Below, piece after piece: positions 9,264 to 63,155 of a stretch of DNA of 64,000 bases. The notes beneath the pieces are model-generated. The model worked only from the letters and a program-made list of their open reading frames with translations. It did not search any database and was not told the DNA's origin. The DNA comes from a virus (taxonomy: Duplodnaviria; Heunggongvirae; Uroviricota; Caudoviricetes). Position numbers and translations under genes: made by a program. The first letter of the stretch is position 1; each line of letters starts with the position of its first letter. The stretch lies in the IMG/VR virus record IMGVR_UViG_3300023210_000016; one strand, 5' to 3'.

Positions 9264-9293
9264 AGATATAATAAGCTAGAACTACTCTAAAGG

Positions 9294-9372
9294 TACTAGG
9301 GGCCGGAATCGAACCGACTCGCCTTGCGGATGCCGTTATGAGCGGCAGGACTCCCCATTTGTCTTCCCTAGC
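9294..9372 (-). tRNA. tRNA, anticodon CAU (Met or Ile2-like), 79 nt, atypical 12-nt variable region and 3-bp D-stem; no encoded CCA
   Basis: Manual fold: acceptor GCTAGGG/CCCTAGT, anticodon stem TGCCG/CGGCA with loop CTCATAA, T-arm GTCGG-TTCGATT-CCGGC. Confidence 0.55.
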
Positions 9373-32711: not shown

Positions 32712-32973
32712 TTATGTATCCTTTCAGGATTGTTTTGGATCGTTCAGTTTAGTTACGCTCTTGATTAAACTTCATGCAGTATAGCAAAGGTGTATACCCG
32801 TGTCCACTGTTTATTTCGAGTTTTTTGATTTTCTTAGTTTTTGGAGAATGTCGGCATCAAGGTCATGACCAATCTCTTGGGCTAGCACATTCATGATCTC
32901 TTTTTCTACGTCAAGTCCTATGTAAGATGTACACTCACGGTCCATCCAACGTTTCTGACGTGCTTTGTCTTTT

Positions 32974-33366
32974 TTAGTTTTCATCCGCGCAAGCACACTT
33001 CACTTCATAATCATGAATAGCTGCTTTGATCGCATCTTCCGCTAACACCGAACAGTGAATTTTCACAGGTGGCAATGCCAACTCTTCTGCAATCTGTGTG
33101 TTTTTAATATCACCAGCTTCTGCAAGAGTTTTACCTTTTACCCATTCTGTGACCAAACTAGATGAAGCAATAGCTGACCCGCAACCAAATGTTTTGAACT
33201 TCGCATCTTGAATGATACCGTCCTGAACTTCGATTTGGAGTTTCATCACATCACCACAAGCCGGACTCCCCACTAATCCGGTTCCTACCGTAATTGAGTC
33301 TTTGTCCATAGCGCCAATGTTGCGCAGGTTCTCGTAATGATCTAATAGTTTGTCTGAGTATGCCAT
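32974..33366 (-). CDS. iscU: Fe-S cluster assembly scaffold IscU, 130 aa
   Basis: Near-identity to IscU signature segments: 'GSPACGDVMKLQI', 'FKTFGCGSAIASSSLVTEWVKGK', 'LPPVKIHCSVLAEDAIKAAI'. Confidence 0.95.
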   Translation of the reverse strand: MAYSDKLLDHYENLRNIGAMDKDSITVGTGLVGSPACGDVMKLQIEVQDGIIQDAKFKTFGCGSAIASSSLVTEWVKGKTLAEAGDIKNTQIAEELALPPVKIHCSVLAEDAIKAAIHDYEVKCACADEN

Positions 33367-36276: not shown

Positions 36277-36348
36277 AGCGGCCAGTCGGGTTCGAACCGA
36301 CGACATTTTCGTTGGCAACGAAATATTCTACCACTGAATTATGGCCGC
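36277..36348 (-). tRNA. tRNA-Gly (anticodon GCC), 72 nt, no encoded CCA
   Basis: Canonical cloverleaf: acceptor GCGGCCA/TGGCCGC, D-arm ATTC-AGTGGTA-GAAT, anticodon loop TTGCCAA, T-arm GTCGG-TTCGAAC-CCGAC. Confidence 0.85.
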
Positions 36349-37455: not shown

Positions 37456-37866
37456 TTACGTCTGTTGTTCATTTTGATCTTCTATAAACTGTTCATCTTT
37501 TTTGGTCTTCTCGCCTTGTATGAGTTTTTTCATTCGGCGTCTAGATTTCCCGGCCTCAAATTTGATCACCGGTCGCCATACCATCACATCTATATATACT
37601 CGTTCAAGTCTAGTGAAAAATTCTTGATAACCGCCTGTATTGGCACTGTACATGTCAGTGGATAGTCCATGGCAAGTTACCGATAGTTTAGTGATTACAA
37701 GCGTTCTTGACCATTTATCCAATGGGTTCACCACGACGAGGATCGAAGTTGTCTCGTTGTTGAACTTGATTGGACATTCTTTGCCAGCGAGATCATACAT
37801 CACTTTGTTTTTTCTGTGATCAGAAATCAGCTTCCCTAATTCTCGAACGAATGGTCGGATGAACAT
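37456..37866 (-). CDS. Hypothetical protein, 136 aa
   Basis: ORF. Confidence 0.4.
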   Translation of the reverse strand: MFIRPFVRELGKLISDHRKNKVMYDLAGKECPIKFNNETTSILVVVNPLDKWSRTLVITKLSVTCHGLSTDMYSANTGGYQEFFTRLERVYIDVMVWRPVIKFEAGKSRRRMKKLIQGEKTKKDEQFIEDQNEQQT

Positions 37867-38243
37867 TATTGATCCTGATTCTGTCTATTTTGCATTGCTT
37901 CGTATTGTTTTTTCGTATTGTTATTCCAGTTCAGTGCACCAGTGATAGCACTCGCAAACCCGCGCCAAATCCGTCCAATTAGCATTCCAATCAAAATTAC
38001 CAATACCACAATGAGTCCAGAGAAGATCGCCCCAAAGACCGGAGATAAAATGTTCTGCAGGATATTATCACTGGACATCAGGAATACAGTGGTTAAGAAC
38101 ATGAATATGATCGGTCCACCAATCCACATCCACGCCTTGGCCGGATTAGACAGAAACCATTCTACGGATTTCATTACTAGAAACATTGGATATGACATCT
38201 TGACTTCTTTCGGTGCTAAATCAAAGGATATATATCGTCCCAT
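37866..38243 (-). CDS. Integral membrane protein, 125 aa (3 predicted TM helices)
   Basis: Hydrophobic segments. Confidence 0.45.
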   Translation of the reverse strand: MGRYISFDLAPKEVKMSYPMFLVMKSVEWFLSNPAKAWMWIGGPIIFMFLTTVFLMSSDNILQNILSPVFGAIFSGLIVVLVILIGMLIGRIWRGFASAITGALNWNNNTKKQYEAMQNRQNQDQ

Positions 38244-38269
38244 GATAATTGATCTTTAGTTAATATTAG

Positions 38270-38361
38270 TACCCCCGCCGAGACTCGAACTCGGAACGCT
38301 CTCTAATCTGGAGACTGTGCTGATTATAAATCAGGGGTTTTACCAATTAAACTACGGGGGC
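38270..38361 (-). tRNA. Atypical tRNA, 92 nt: anticodon loop TTTATAA (UAU, Ile-AUA-like), long 24-nt variable arm with its own stem-loop; no CCA
   Basis: Acceptor GCCCCCG/CGGGGGT (G1-U72), D-arm GTTT-AATTGGTA-AAAC, anticodon stem CTGA/TCAG, T-arm CCGAG-TTCGAGT-CTCGG. Confidence 0.5.
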
Positions 38362-38368
38362 AAGGGTG

Positions 38369-38707
38369 TTAGCGCGATATCTTCTTGATGATATTATTGT
38401 ACTCTATCGCGGTCTTCTTGTCTATCTGATCCTTGCGAAACATGTCGAAAAACTTGCGCCACCACGATGATGGTTTTTGTGCTAATTTATCGGACATCGA
38501 CTGTAGTATCACCATTTCTGAATGGGTCAACACCGTTAACGTATCTTCTTCTTCTGGTATCACCGACTGTAGGATATTCTCTGATCCTTCTGGAACTTGC
38601 ACACCGTACTCACTCAATACGGCATGCGCAGTTGTGCGATTGCGAGTGAATGCTCTCTTTTTCTTTTTGCCGACTGTGTGGCCGGGAATGAAGCTGCGTG
38701 GGTCCAT
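38369..38707 (-). CDS. Hypothetical protein, 112 aa
   Basis: ORF. Confidence 0.4.
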   Translation of the reverse strand: MDPRSFIPGHTVGKKKKRAFTRNRTTAHAVLSEYGVQVPEGSENILQSVIPEEEDTLTVLTHSEMVILQSMSDKLAQKPSSWWRKFFDMFRKDQIDKKTAIEYNNIIKKISR

Positions 38708-47366: not shown

Positions 47367-47672
47367 TTATTTGTTGAAGGTCAAGCAAAACCAATGGTAC
47401 ATATCCCGATCCTTGAAGTGTATTCTGTTATTGCTCAGATAAAATTCGACATTGTTCCGTTTAAAAAATGCATACTTCTTGGTTTGAATTGCGCATATCA
47501 AATCAATATTACCACAATCTCCCATGATCTTCCATGCAAAATATTCTGGCTCACCCAAAAGACCCGGTAGTTCTCGCATCCGATTCTTACAGGTAGTGGC
47601 ATCAACCTCATTCCAATCAGAGTAAAGGTGGATTTGAGTAATAACACCGGGTTGTCTAGGATTTCTTCCCAT
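47367..47672 (-). CDS. Hypothetical protein, 101 aa
   Basis: ORF. Confidence 0.35.
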   Translation of the reverse strand: MGRNPRQPGVITQIHLYSDWNEVDATTCKNRMRELPGLLGEPEYFAWKIMGDCGNIDLICAIQTKKYAFFKRNNVEFYLSNNRIHFKDRDMYHWFCLTFNK

Positions 47673-48201
47673 GATGATCTTTCGGCTTCCATGTCTTCTT
47701 GTTCATTGCCCGTTTGAGGTCTTCGAATGATACAGGATGATAATTCCATACATCTACCCCAACGTCTAAACTCAATGCTGTCGGATCATCTGATAATGAG
47801 CCGTGAGAGTGCCCGTAAAGCTGCCATGCGCCGTAGTGAGAGCGATTCCAGACCCTCATGGCGTAGTGGAACAGAACAATGCTTTGCTTCTCTATGGTGA
47901 CCTCAAGGTACGGGTTAACTGATTCCCAGCCCATACCGGAATGATACTGAATACGGCGATCATGATTGCCAGTGATCAAATGCTTTTTACCATTCAATCG
48001 AGCCGTGAACCAACTTGCTCTCGACTGATTCGAGAACGCAAAGTCACCACAATGATAAACCGTGTCATCTGGATCAACAACACTGTTCCAATTCGAGATC
48101 AATGCCTCATTCATATCATCACGGTCCTTGAACGGACGATCACAATATTCAATCACCTTACTATGATCGAAATGTGTGTCTGATGTGAAATGTACGGTCA
48201 T
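47656..48201 (-). CDS. Calcineurin-like metallophosphoesterase (Ser/Thr phosphatase-like), 181 aa
   Basis: 'DTHFDH', 'HCGDFAF', 'GNHD' metallophosphatase motifs. Confidence 0.8.
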   Translation of the reverse strand: MTVHFTSDTHFDHSKVIEYCDRPFKDRDDMNEALISNWNSVVDPDDTVYHCGDFAFSNQSRASWFTARLNGKKHLITGNHDRRIQYHSGMGWESVNPYLEVTIEKQSIVLFHYAMRVWNRSHYGAWQLYGHSHGSLSDDPTALSLDVGVDVWNYHPVSFEDLKRAMNKKTWKPKDHHGKKS

Positions 48202-59174: not shown

Positions 59175-59332
59175 TGGTGGGTCTTGACGGGATCGAACCG
59201 CCGACATTCTCGGTGTCATTTGAACCTCAAAGATTTCCCTTCTTGGTTCCCCAATGCAGAGTTCGATGAACTCCGGAGACTTTATGGAAGTCTCACATAA
59301 ACGAGATGCTCTACCATCTGAGCTAAAGACCC
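59175..59332 (-). tRNA. tRNA-like gene, 158 nt with encoded CCA: canonical acceptor/D/T arms but an ~82-nt insertion (putative intron) in the anticodon loop; the spliced loop would be TTTATGC (UAU)
   Basis: 5' exon GGGTCTT-TA-GCTC-AGATGGTA-GAGC-A-TCTCG; 3' exon CGAGA-ATGTC-GGCGG-TTCGATC-CCGTC-AAGACCC-A-CCA; 89 nt lie between the paired anticodon-stem halves. Confidence 0.55.
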
Positions 59333-62729: not shown

Positions 62730-63155
62730 CTATACATCTTCTTCCCTTTGCTTTACGCCTAAACGCGCATTCACCATTTGTTCAAACTCTTTGTCTAAAT
62801 CACTGTATTGGATTGTTTCACCACTTGCATGATCTTTGACAATGTTACGAGGCTCATGATAGGTTCGAATGGTTTCATCAGATTCGTAACGTTTACGCGA
62901 CTCTTTTTGATTATACAGGTTTACTACCCGATGTGCAAGTTTTGTGAACGCCTCTTTTTGATTACGGGATCGTTCACGGAAATTCTGACCGGTTTCCATC
63001 ATGCCAGATTCGATATGGGTGATCCTGCAACAGTTCTGATGTTTGTTGCGATGCTGCCCACCTGCGCCGGTACCACTGAACCAATCGATCTTGAAATCTT
63101 TCTTGGTGAACGATAGATGCGGTATTCGCTCTAAGTGCATGTTAGTTTTGACCAT
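62730..63155 (-). CDS. ArfB/class-I release-factor-like GGQ-domain peptidyl-tRNA hydrolase, 141 aa
   Basis: 'SGTGAGGQHRNKHQNCCRITHIESGMMETGQNFRERSRNQKEA' matches the RF GGQ domain (SG.GGQ.VNK....R..H.P.G..V.CQ..RSQ..N). Confidence 0.75.
   Translation of the reverse strand: MVKTNMHLERIPHLSFTKKDFKIDWFSGTGAGGQHRNKHQNCCRITHIESGMMETGQNFRERSRNQKEAFTKLAHRVVNLYNQKESRKRYESDETIRTYHEPRNIVKDHASGETIQYSDLDKEFEQMVNARLGVKQREEDV

Follow-up and report, generated by a model that had tools for sequence, protein, structure and literature searches.

A widespread family of phage tRNA(UAU) genes with a GAU-looped extra arm: candidate TilS-independent decoders of AUA

Background

AUA, a rare isoleucine codon, is to our knowledge the sense codon that bacteria find hardest to read. 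Its standard decoding requires the essential enzyme TilS, and the anticodon UAU is normally rejected by isoleucyl-tRNA synthetase (IleRS) and also misreads AUG. In the TilS system the task of reading AUA as Ile without reading AUG falls to tRNA-Ile2(CAU), in which C34 is converted enzymatically to lysidine (LAU), itself an IleRS determinant; the phage tRNA described here would share the task but has no C34.

The strong isoleucine determinants of E. coli are A73, the anticodon G34/L34-A35-U36, t6A37 and A38, and the minor ones are C4-G69, U12-A23 and C29-G41 (PMC9976931). A UAU anticodon is charged inefficiently by E. coli IleRS, the discriminating Trp being conserved in tilS-bearing bacteria, and on a normal bacterial ribosome a UAU tRNA cannot distinguish AUA from AUG (PMC3575796). 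In Mycoplasma mobile and other bacteria that lack tilS, tRNA-Ile2(UAU) reads AUA with no need of lysidine or TilS; A73 and a t6A37-type anticodon loop are common to it and the present tRNA, but its variable loop is an ordinary one of 5 nt, and the adaptation resides in IleRS (Arg865) and in the ribosome (PMC3575796). The family reported below differs in carrying an added arm with a GAU loop on the tRNA itself, and in that its carriers, phages and tRNA arrays, belong to hosts in which TilS and a standard IleRS are expected.

Long variable arms are known from other groups too. The class II tRNAs (bacterial Leu, Ser, Tyr and Sec) share with the present family a base-paired arm between the anticodon and T stems and core pairs that include 15-48, but they are of other isotypes and their arms have a tetraloop-type loop of 3-4 nt and a 3' linker of 1-2 nt, whereas the loop here is a GAU loop of 7 nt and the linker is 5-6 nt long; the body type of the tRNA studied here has a 4-bp D stem. 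Nematode nev-tRNA-Ile(UAU) likewise joins UAU to a long variable arm in a normally arm-less isotype, but it is eukaryotic, derived from tRNA-Leu and leucylated in vitro, with no anticodon-like loop reported (PMC3333845, PMC4300185); the codon evidence for the present family points to Ile. The allo-tRNAs(UAU) of Acidobacteria and metagenomes, as presented in the main text of Mukai et al. 2017 (PMC5389517), are bacterial or phage-borne, have UAU as their commonest anticodon, a long arm and possible five-stem junctions, and share with one of our body types (B) a tRNA-Sec-like D arm and an anticodon stem of 6-7 bp; acidobacterial genomes are home to both groups. According to that text the allo-tRNAs have an 8/4 or 9/3 acceptor/T-stem geometry, G73 or U73 (Ser identity) and an association with toxin-antitoxin genes, in contrast to the 7/5 geometry, invariant A73 and complete tRNA arrays of the present family, although a partial overlap is possible.

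Methods

The window is a stretch of 64,000 nucleotides of viral DNA (Caudoviricetes; IMG/VR record IMGVR_UViG_3300023210_000016). tRNA genes were called using ARAGORN and scored using the Rfam models and a covariance model, R1, that was constructed from 22 relatives of the UAU tRNA with the window sequence and its nearest relatives left out. The UAU family was defined by a YUUAUAM loop containing UAU, A73, an extra stem of 3-5 bp, a 7-nt extra loop with GAU at positions 3-5 and a 3' linker of 5-6 nt; at these places the window tRNA has UUUAUAA, A73, UCUC/GAGA, CAGAUUA and GCGUU. A separate family of CAU tRNAs was defined by a CUCAUAA loop and a 2-4 bp variable stem with a GNRA tetraloop, followed by a canonical T arm.

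Results and Discussion

Structure of the tRNA(UAU) gene

The interval 38270..38361, on the minus strand, is a confirmed, genuine tRNA gene of 92 nt. It was called as tRNA-Ile(tat) by ARAGORN (38269-38361) and was matched over its full length by RF00005 (38270-38361, model positions 1-71; 56.6 bits, E 1.6e-9), the extra arm being handled as an insertion, and R1 gave 87.4 bits (E 1.5e-19) for the same interval compared with about 40 bits for the other tRNAs of the window. The initial annotation had proposed a 92-nt tRNA with the anticodon UAU in a TTTATAA loop and had named tRNAscan-SE/ARAGORN scoring as the check and covariance-model scores below the tRNA threshold as a refutation; both the call and the two model scores bear it out, the Rfam score lying above the gathering score of 29 bits. 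In an independent assembly of the same phage (L338) the gene is identical over its full length, and in a second one (L339) the match ends at the contig end.

The gene is complete, covers tRNA positions 1-73 and does not encode CCA; all of its parts are given here on the minus strand. The acceptor stem is formed by the 5' strand GCCCCCG (38355..38361) and the 3' strand CGGGGGU (38271-38277) with a G1.U72 wobble, and in 26 relatives 99.5% of this helix is paired and double changes occur at 7/7 pairs. The D arm, GUUU-AAUUGGUA-AAAC (38337..38352), is canonical and includes G18G19. Its A15 is able to pair with U48, the final base of the variable region, and in relatives read by eye base 15 and the last variable-region base are linked, mostly as A15-U48 and as G15-C48 in two of them (L070 and L091). 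The anticodon arm, CCUGA-UUUAUAA-UCAGC (38319..38335), has a C27.C43 mismatch and bears the anticodon UAU, which reads AUA, at 38326..38328 with U33 and A37 on either side; the YUUAUAM loop is kept in all 66 parsed members of the family. The T arm, CCGAG-UUCGAGU-CUCGG (38278..38294), was assigned from sequence and covariation, and the discriminator A73 (38270) is A in 65/65 readable members. A 7-bp acceptor stem and a 5-bp T stem are found in the window tRNA and in 66/66 parsed relatives, and neither the eighth acceptor pair nor the G73/U73 that the main text of Mukai et al. gives for allo-tRNAs is available in the window tRNA. Thermodynamic folding of the single window sequence did not recover the D arm or the extra arm (z = -2.5), and covariation was therefore used for the structure.

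The variable region of 24 nt (38295..38318) reads ACAG-UCUC-CAGAUUA-GAGA-GCGUU, that is, linker, stem, loop, stem and linker. UCUC (38311..38314) is paired with GAGA (38300..38303) in a stem of 4 bp, closed by the 7-nt loop CAGAUUA (38304..38310), in which GAU (38306-38308) occupies the positions equivalent to 34-36 of an anticodon loop. The 3' linker, GCGUU (38295..38299), has the 5 nt of an ordinary variable loop, its last base serving as position 48, and is 5-6 nt long in 62 of the 66 family members. The first reading of the sequence had described the region in exactly this form, as a 4-bp stem closed by a loop of 7 nt, and the class-II-like placement of the arm, unusual for Ile, that was claimed with it agrees with the length of 24 nt and the covarying 4-bp stem. 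By length the paired arm exceeds the 10 nt that mark class II, while the anticodon (UAU), the 7-nt loop and the 5-nt linker are not those of a Leu, Ser or Tyr tRNA. The invariant GAU at the anticodon-equivalent positions of the arm is the key feature that was overlooked at that stage.

Distribution of the family

Collection of relatives gave about 70 distinct sequences, whose sources are phage contigs, three phages in culture and, on bacterial chromosomes, tRNA arrays; the phages of the family are large ones, and the arrays are mobile. When viral contigs were scanned with a pattern, 114 loci came up, 84 of which contained a tRNA(tat) of the long type, and a scan in which the loop was left unspecified still returned NNGAUNN loops (CCGAUUA, CGGAUUA, UAGAUGA and UAGAUGG). 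Among loci that had been collected with an unrelated CAU pattern there were 14 tRNA(tat) genes; nine were long, and CAGAU(U/A)A loops were present in seven of the nine. The cultured carriers are Sinorhizobium phage Phosso and Synechococcus phages S-SRM01 and S-SKS1; the genes lack annotation in the records of the two cyanophages and are easily taken for oddities. On bacterial chromosomes, GAU-loop tRNA(UAU) genes are carried by tRNA arrays of Pyrinomonadaceae and Bryobacterales, and the genes of the family lie within ordinary tRNA arrays beside a full isoacceptor complement.

Body plans vary. In the B type the D arm resembles that of tRNA-Sec, its 4-bp stem being capped by a tetraloop, the anticodon stem is 6-7 bp long, and the UAU stem directly abuts the GAU stem. 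In the L015/L234 relative the T stem and the acceptor stem are imperfect, and an L015-type relative was all that a scan of metagenomes for the extra-arm sequence of the window tRNA brought up. A megablast search of the region against cultured phages gave no near-identical phage; BLAST searches of cultured phages with the window tRNA and two further body types as queries returned generic partial tRNA matches or none, and BLAST of a short UAU tRNA, run as a host-association test, gave unrelated isoacceptors only. No description of a GAU-loop tRNA(UAU) was found in full-text searches of the literature, including the main text of Mukai et al., where a GAU loop is not mentioned (PMC5389517), and this widespread family is apparently undescribed.

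Conservation and specificity of the extra arm

In 26 relatives the extra-arm helix is 94% paired, with changes on both sides at 4/4 pairs, and in 66 sequences the second pair of the stem is GC in 34, UA in 10, CG in 10, AU in 10 and UG in 2. The whole-structure covariation score was 0.90 as against 0.24 in shuffles, none of 500 shuffles scoring as high. Since about 70 distinct sequences share the arm and show covariation in it, the arm is neither an artefact nor an insertion that makes the gene a pseudogene, an outcome that the initial annotation had left as a way to be refuted.

The extra loop has G at position 3 in 65, A at position 4 in 65 and U at position 5 in 64 of 66 sequences, with C/U at position 1 and A/G at position 7 (consensus Y-N-G-A-U-N-R, 7 nt, on a stem of 4-5 bp), figures that are partly so by construction because many of the sequences came from patterns requiring CAGAT and the members are phylogenetically non-independent, although the two less biased samples agree. 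With a stem and loop of these lengths the extra hairpin is as large as an anticodon arm. In the set of tRNAs whose variable region has 10 nt or more, the 7-nt NNGAUNN loop occurs in 67 of 70 UAU tRNAs as against 1 of about 370 others, and the other long-armed tRNAs of the compared set, the arms of Leu, Ser and Tyr tRNAs in the same phage loci included, have GNRA or UUCG tetraloops.

The commonest pairs of the extra stem, counted from the loop, are C-G, G-C and C-G, and the same pairs are the commonest at 31:39, 30:40 and 29:41 in the anticodon stems of tRNA-Ile(GAU) from the same loci; the own anticodon stem of the GAU-loop tRNA(UAU) differs from that consensus. In short UAU tRNAs that are without the arm, 31:39 and 29:41 are C-G in most cases, as in tRNA-Ile(GAU). 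The likeness of the extra stem to tRNA-Ile(GAU) extends to the place of C29-G41, a determinant for E. coli IleRS. The length of the extra stem follows that of the anticodon stem in a weak trend (r = 0.31). The GAU arm was also considered as the true decoding arm and was rejected: its loop is without U33 and usually without a purine at 37, and the UAU loop is canonical.

Meaning of AUA in carrier phages

AUA codons of the carrier phages align to Ile in 51%, Val in 15% and Leu in 13% of cases. The corresponding figures (Ile/Val/Leu) are 56/18/11 for AUU and 64/13/10 for AUC, while the Leu codons of the same phages align to Leu in 58-73%. As judged from these alignments, AUA evolves like Ile codons and unlike Leu codons. 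In the window, where AUA makes up 18% of Ile codons (11.7 per 1000 codons), one AUA of the carbamoyltransferase gene falls at a column that is Ile in 118 of the 119 homologues. Of the six AUA codons in this gene, two are at Tyr-rich columns, both in variable or indel-adjacent segments; the pooled profile has no Tyr signal, and AUA as Tyr was rejected.

Isoleucine identity and alternative explanations

The window tRNA has A73, A35, U36, A37 and A38 of the Ile determinants, with U at position 34. Among the minor positions, C4-G69 (variable across the family) and U12-A23 are present, and 29:41 is U-A, not C-G; its equivalent in the extra arm is C-G in the window tRNA and in 50 of 66 relatives. 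A functional elongator tRNA with a UAU anticodon would decode AUA as Ile without lysidine synthesis by TilS; this independence, suggested by the initial annotation for the three tRNAs together, holds by definition, since a U34 tRNA requires no lysidine. Bacterial IleRS reads G34/L34-A35-U36 and charges UAU tRNAs poorly. The extra arm may mimic the anticodon arm of tRNA-Ile(GAU) and offer a surrogate GAU identity signal, jointly with A73, in which case IleRS would isoleucylate the tRNA and the true UAU anticodon would be left free for AUA. We infer the charging and the role of the loop, and give a TilS-independent AUA-to-Ile decoder with an IleRS-recruiting GAU arm a little less than an even chance. 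Somewhat more tentatively, the identity anticodon, a decoy GAU read by the host IleRS, may be physically separate from the decoding anticodon UAU. It is a possibility that such a five-helix tRNA switches which arm is stacked under the D stem, with one state for charging and the other for decoding.

The mimicry proposal assumes that the anticodon-binding domain of IleRS reaches the loop of the extra arm. In a canonical class II tRNA the extra arm is directed away from the anticodon. Further points against mimicry are that the loop is without U33 and usually without a purine at 37, t6A37 being itself an IleRS determinant, and that a class II shape with A73 and A15-U48 presents LeuRS features too. 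The arm is not obligatory, since short arm-less UAU tRNAs also occur in phages.

An invariant loop sequence implies sequence-specific recognition by some factor, and that partner need not be IleRS: the GAU arm could be a handle for an enzyme that modifies U34 against AUG misreading or for one of processing or of repair, or it could protect against host tRNA nucleases as a decoy or a shield, with Ile charging through the tRNA's own anticodon loop and A73. The inability of a UAU tRNA to separate AUA from AUG (PMC3575796) is indeed a second problem to be solved; the real anticodon loop retains U33, A37 and A38, compatible with direct contact by IleRS, and the occurrence of arm-less UAU tRNAs fits as well. 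A metallophosphoesterase gene recurs near GAU-loop tRNAs (about 17 loci), but it goes with tRNA clusters generally, and among the loci examined no candidate enzyme co-varies with the arm. A handle of this kind would also leave the choice of an Ile-anticodon triplet, its anticodon-equivalent position and the stem that matches tRNA-Ile(GAU) unexplained, and it seems rather unlikely. Charging by another synthetase, with AUA read wholly or partly as Leu, is a clearly weaker candidate. LeuRS, SerRS and TyrRS ignore or barely read the anticodon, and A73 with A15-U48 is a LeuRS-type combination (E. coli Leu identity) that here accompanies a class II arm placement. Precedents exist in nematode nev-tRNA-Ile(UAU), leucylated in vitro (PMC3333845), and in the allo-tRNAs, which according to the main text of their description put Ser at Leu codons (PMC5389517). 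The arm-stripped window tRNA has no clear Ile-like nearest neighbour, although nearest-neighbour typing of the arm-stripped tRNA(UAU) body was uninformative, giving Thr, Leu and others. A Leu identity is opposed by the Ile-type, not Leu-type, substitution profile of AUA in the carrier phages, by the AUA at an invariant Ile of the window carbamoyltransferase, by the unexplained invariant GAU heptaloop and by the arms of true phage tRNA-Leu and tRNA-Ser, which have GNRA or UUCG tetraloops and 3' linkers of 1-2 nt; for SerRS the required G73 is missing, and for TyrRS the anticodon is without the required U35.

The arm might instead be a relic, the original GAU anticodon arm having been displaced by an inserted or duplicated UAU arm and retained for folding only. 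Its anticodon-arm size, the following 5-6 nt linker sized like a normal variable loop, the likeness of its stem consensus to tRNA-Ile(GAU) anticodon stems and the direct adjoining of UAU and GAU stems in the B body type would all fit. A purely structural hairpin, however, would be expected to drift to stable tetraloops, as in all other phage extra arms, whereas GAU is fixed while the stem turns over fully by compensatory change, in two very different bodies and in distant hosts, and a relic is as improbable as charging by another synthetase. Least probable of all is a tRNA-like RNA outside translation, regulatory or associated with mobile elements. In the main text of Mukai et al., a non-translational role is proposed for most acidobacterial allo-tRNA(UAU) species, variants being inactive in E. 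coli and possibly forming five-stem junctions (PMC5389517), and the tRNA-Sec-like D arm and long anticodon stem of the B type and the imperfect T and acceptor stems of L015/L234 could be read in the same way. Against it, conservation with covariation extends to all helices, to the 7/5 geometry and to U33, A37, G18G19, the T loop and A73; the genes lie in ordinary tRNA arrays with the full isoacceptor complement adjacent, and AUA is in use in the window at the rate given above.

If recruitment of IleRS by the GAU arm is correct, a new principle of tRNA identity would be at hand, in which the identity element is placed in a surrogate arm. Phages and mobile tRNA arrays would then be able to equip any host for AUA decoding that is independent of TilS, with its synthetase unaltered, which would account for the supply of AUA decoding by AT-richer phages across very different hosts, and the design, with synthetase recognition separated from codon reading, would be portable to synthetic biology. 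The presence of the element in three cultured phage-host pairs makes the surrogate-arm idea directly testable.

Other tRNA genes and flanking reading frames of the window

The initial annotation had joined the UAU gene to two further tRNAs in a three-gene system for AUA. The CAU tRNA of this proposal is present on the minus strand at 9294..9372 (anticodon 9338-9340), with the CUCAUAA loop and 12-nt variable region that had been noted, a 3-bp D stem, G1.U72 and A73 (ARAGORN). Its variable region, UCCGCAAGGCGA (9319-9330, minus strand), forms a short stem under a GCAA tetraloop. The Rfam tRNA model gave no match to 9294-9372 at E<=1, the sole match being to tRNA-Sec with 17 bits; the D stem and the variable stem nevertheless covary among relatives in other phages, the closest of which (L063, L276, L267 and L312) have the D, extra and T arms in common with it. 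The family comprises 66 distinct sequences from 89 viral loci with GNRA-capped short extra arms, and the window sequence at this place is UCC-GCAA-GG-CGA. On this evidence of sequence the CAU tRNA is one of a distinct and widespread family of phage tRNAs and a putative acceptor of Met or Ile2. The intron-containing tRNA at 59178-59332 had been taken as a second UAU tRNA, which did not hold: the sequence of its exons is nearly identical, base by base, to that of phage tRNA-Val(UAC), and joining them yields the anticodon loop UUUA|CAC with the anticodon UAC. A search for its relatives gave one chance match only. With the intron tRNA not UAU and the CAU tRNA in a separate family, the three-gene system is unsupported.

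The reading frames that flank the tRNA(UAU) gene (37456-38243 and 38369-38707) had no meaningful matches in PHROG, Pfam, NCBIfam or PDB. Within the former, 37456-37866 has a weak AsnA-like (class II synthetase-like) match, below the cut-off in Pfam (E 5e-5) and at 0.09 in PDB.

The tRNA(UAU) gene and its family

When scored as a tRNA, the gene at 38270-38361 (-) was matched by ARAGORN and scored 56.6 bits with the Rfam tRNA model, which accommodates the 20-odd additional bases as an insert within the variable region. The acceptor, D, and anticodon arms read GCCCCCG UA GUUU AAUUGGUA AAAC C CCUGA UUUAUAA UCAGC, followed by ACAG-UCUC-CAGAUUA-GAGA-GCGUU CCGAG UUCGAGU CUCGG CGGGGGU A, and all of the structural elements described in the initial annotation are present. 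The same tRNA was found in two more assemblies of this phage from other samples, full-length and identical in one (L338) and ended by the contig end in the other (L339), a finding that rules out an assembly artefact. When a covariance model was made from 22 type A sequences (see below), with the window and its closest relatives excluded, the gene scored 87.4 bits (E 1.5e-19), compared with ~40 bits for the other window tRNAs. The gene is a genuine representative of a tRNA family that is widespread and apparently undescribed.

The anatomy of the family was determined from 66 distinct parsed sequences. Every member has a 7-bp acceptor stem, a 5-bp T stem, and the anticodon loop Y-U-U-A-U-A-M, and the discriminator is A73 in 65/65. 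The variable region comprises a 5' linker of 1-5 nt, a stem of 3-5 bp, a 7-nt loop, and a 3' linker of 5-6 nt, the final base of which varies together with nucleotide 15 (A15-U48 in most members, G15-C48 in those of loci L070/L091) and therefore acts as position 48 of a normal core. The loop consists of C/U, mostly A, G (65/66), A (65/66), U (64/66), any base, and A/G. This common extra arm is carried by two very different bodies. The type A body, which includes the window gene, has a canonical D arm. The type B body, present in L002-type loci and in phages S-SRM01 and S-SKS1, has a D stem of 4 bp capped by a UGGU tetraloop, a 1-nt linker, and an anticodon stem of 6-7 bp, the 7-bp form of which abuts the GAU arm; in these respects it is like tRNA-Sec and allo-tRNA.

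For covariation analysis, 26 type A sequences were aligned with MAFFT and assessed against a cloverleaf with the extra helix added. This structure was 94.8% paired and its covariation score was 0.90, versus 0.24 for shuffled alignments (0/500 reached 0.90) and ~0.15 for slid controls. The extra helix alone was 94% paired, and at each of its 4 pairs both bases had changed. The 27:43 pair of the anticodon stem (columns 29/46 of this alignment, A1) is either mismatched (as C.C in the window gene) or G.U in 20/26 sequences, which leaves a stem of effectively 4 bp where the extra arm emerges. Anticodon stems of 4 bp have been linked to relaxed decoding in a 2026 paper (PMC13092985).

Distribution

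An initial scan of IMG/VR with an exact pattern (anticodon loop, CAGAU, and T loop) returned 114 loci, in 84 of which ARAGORN predicted a tRNA(tat) of 88-98 nt. Because this pattern forced CAGAU, two less biased samples were taken. A second scan, in which only UUUAUAA and the T loop were specified, recovered UAU tRNAs of two sizes, short (72-77 nt) and long. Those long tRNAs that the first pattern had missed had the loops CCGAUUA, CGGAUUA, UAGAUGA, and UAGAUGG, all of 7 bases with GAU central, and the lone exception was CGGACGG. In loci retrieved with an unrelated CAU-tRNA pattern there were 14 tRNA(tat), 9 of them long, with CAGAU(U/A)A in 7/9; the stem-loop UCUC-CAGAUUA-GAGA at three of these loci (L312, L318, and L327) is that of the window.

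Among cultured phages, members were found in Sinorhizobium phage Phosso, where the gene is annotated as tRNA-Ile(tat), and in Synechococcus phages S-SRM01 (MW015081, ~32943-33032) and S-SKS1 (HQ633071), where it is unannotated; in S-SKS1 a tRNA(CAU) directly follows. Cellular members occur in arrays of 20-30 tRNA genes on Pyrinomonadaceae and Bryobacterales chromosomes, and on contigs assigned to Caulobacterales, Bdellovibrio, and Melainabacteria. A relative in L015, L084, L094, L234, and L235 carries the complete extra arm of the window gene (same stem-loop, linkers alike but for one base) and is ~80% identical overall. Its T stem is defective and its acceptor stem bulged, yet it is identical across the five contigs; either decay of the copy or a variant geometry would account for this. 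These contigs also share a tRNA-Gly(GCC) 81% identical to that of the window.

Likeness of the extra arm to tRNA-Ile(GAU)

Distinct tRNAs of the fetched loci with variable regions of at least 10 nt were compared. A hairpin with a 7-nt NNGAUNN loop was present in 67 of 70 UAU tRNAs versus 1 of ~370 others; Leu, Ser, and Tyr tRNAs and long Met, Lys, and Thr tRNAs have GNRA or UUCG-type tetraloops instead. In bacteria, the major tRNA-Ile has the anticodon GAU; in the extra arm this triplet takes up loop positions 3-5, the place equivalent to an anticodon. Counting from the loop, the commonest pairs of the extra-arm stem are C-G, G-C, and C-G, which are also the commonest at 31:39, 30:40, and 29:41 of tRNA-Ile(GAU) from the same loci, and the match includes the equivalent of the E. 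coli IleRS determinant C29-G41. The family's own UAU anticodon stem differs (U-A, G-C, then G-C or A-U). Short phage UAU tRNAs that have no extra arm mostly carry C-G at their own 31:39 and 29:41, as in tRNA-Ile(GAU). Compared with a real anticodon loop, the GAU loop has A rather than U at position 33 and mostly U rather than a purine at 37. The UAU loop is fully canonical, and the UAU arm would therefore serve in decoding and the GAU arm as a recognition element.

Small GNRA-like-capped extra arms were also seen on phage Lys(UUU/CUU), Thr(UGU), Trp, Arg(UCU), and Asn tRNAs (L043, L092, L099, L101, L205, L210, L230, and other loci), many of which read ANN codons. In phage tRNA clusters, it appears common for normally class I isotypes to bear extra arms.

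Meaning of AUA and charging of the tRNA

AUA makes up 18% of Ile codons in the window, a frequency of 11.7 per 1000 codons. ORFs of loci carrying the long tRNA were compared all-vs-all, and codon partners were counted in pairs at 35-85% identity. AUA was aligned with Ile codons in 51% of cases, Val in 15%, and Leu in 13%, and the corresponding values were 56%, 18%, and 11% for AUU and 64%, 13%, and 10% for AUC. Leu codons were aligned with Ile codons in 5-10% and with Leu codons in 58-73%. The window carbamoyltransferase, aligned with 119 homologues, contains six AUA codons: one at an Ile found in 118/119 homologues, one at an I/V column, one at an L/V/I column, and three in variable or indel-adjacent segments. 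Judged from these alignments, AUA in the carrier phages looks like an Ile codon; the Ile-like profile counts against a Leu or Ser recoding tRNA, and the tRNA is probably a functional AUA/Ile decoder.

Ile identity depends strongly on A73 and the anticodon, with t6A37 and a few stem pairs as further determinants (PMC9976931). A UAU anticodon is charged inefficiently by E. coli IleRS, the Trp stacking on base 34 is conserved across tilS-bearing bacteria, and on the E. coli ribosome a UAU tRNA cannot tell AUA from AUG (PMC3575796). A phage supplying a TilS-independent AUA reader would therefore face a charging problem. An Ile(GAU)-like stem bearing a GAU heptaloop could supply the missing IleRS anticodon signal. 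The arm may instead be recognized by a U34-modifying enzyme or some other enzyme, or be a structural relic, and the molecule might be a non-translational RNA; given the invariance of the heptaloop, its specificity to UAU tRNAs, and its Ile(GAU)-like stem, a role as an IleRS signal is the simplest explanation, which we put forward tentatively. Charging by LeuRS is a further alternative, against which stands the AUA partner profile, Ile-like and not Leu-like. Nematode nev-tRNA(UAU), among the closest published oddities, is leucylated in vitro.

The other closest oddity is the acidobacterial allo-tRNA(UAU) of Mukai et al., defined in the main text of that paper by 8/4 or 9/3 geometry and G73/U73, and mostly judged inactive (PMC5389517). 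Compared with that text, the GAU-loop family departs in both defining features, being 7/5 with A73. The tRNA-Ile2(UAU) of Mycoplasma mobile has the same codon task but lacks the extra arm. Class II tRNAs look similar, and the window gene differs from them in isotype, loop, and linker anatomy. Full-text literature searches found no account of a tRNA-Ile(UAU) whose extra arm has a GAU loop, and the passages covered of a 2023 review of tRNA identity make no mention of it.

Other tRNA genes and genomic context

The window derives from a novel large phage, with no near relative among cultured phages, that encodes T4-like baseplate and virion proteins and a Nol-like carbamoyltransferase, for the most part on the minus strand. 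ARAGORN and Rfam each predicted 3 tRNAs, the union being 4: the tRNA(UAU), a tRNA-Gly(GCC) at 36277-36348, a CAU tRNA at 9292-9372 (-) predicted by ARAGORN, and an interrupted tRNA at 59178-59332 (-).

The CAU gene (tRNA proper at 9294-9372) fails the Rfam tRNA model, and its sole Rfam match is tRNA-Sec at 17 bits. It belongs to a second recurrent phage family of 66 distinct CAU tRNAs from 89 viral loci (among L236-L337, L062, L063, and L067), in which the extra arm is short, with 2-4 bp and a GNRA tetraloop (CC-GCAA-GG in the window copy). This family has at least 3 subgroups, one of which is initiator-like (NGCGGGG...CCCCGCNAC, 1:72 mismatch). The unusual D arm of the window copy and its T arm recur in its nearest relatives, and the window copy may be Met or Ile2. 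The exons of the interrupted gene are almost base for base those of phage tRNA-Val, and the joined loop UUUA|CAC reads UAC rather than the UAU assigned initially; the gene is tRNA-Val(UAC). Its 82-nt anticodon-loop insert folds as three hairpins and is far below typical group I intron size; no Rfam family was matched, and no relative was found in IMG/VR by pattern scan. The initial annotation had suggested that these two genes may form an AUA-decoding system with the gene at 38270-38361. Its observation of the latter holds and its interpretation is borne out in part, but three cooperating genes are unsupported, the interrupted gene being assigned to tRNA-Val(UAC) and the CAU gene to a separate family.

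The tRNA(UAU) lies between two same-strand ORFs (adjoining gaps 38243-38270 and 38361-38369), 7 nt past the stop of one and 26 nt ahead of the start of the next, and has no encoded CCA; excision from a polycistronic mRNA and a host CCA-adding enzyme would therefore be required. Two genes downstream, a 136-aa ORF at 37456-37866 (-) has matches to the class II synthetase-like AsnA (Pfam E 5e-5, below cut-off) and to a PDB asparagine synthetase (E 0.09) that are too weak to interpret. A calcineurin-like metallophosphoesterase (Pfam Metallophos_2) is encoded at 47656-48201 (-); homologues lie within a few kb of a long tRNA(UAU) in ~17 otherwise unrelated viral loci, and the enzyme may act in repair or processing in association with tRNA clusters. 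A 141-aa RF-1-domain protein at 62730-63155 (-), a peptidyl-tRNA hydrolase or ArfB-like ribosome-rescue factor, has homologues close to tRNA clusters in loci L083, L075, and L092.
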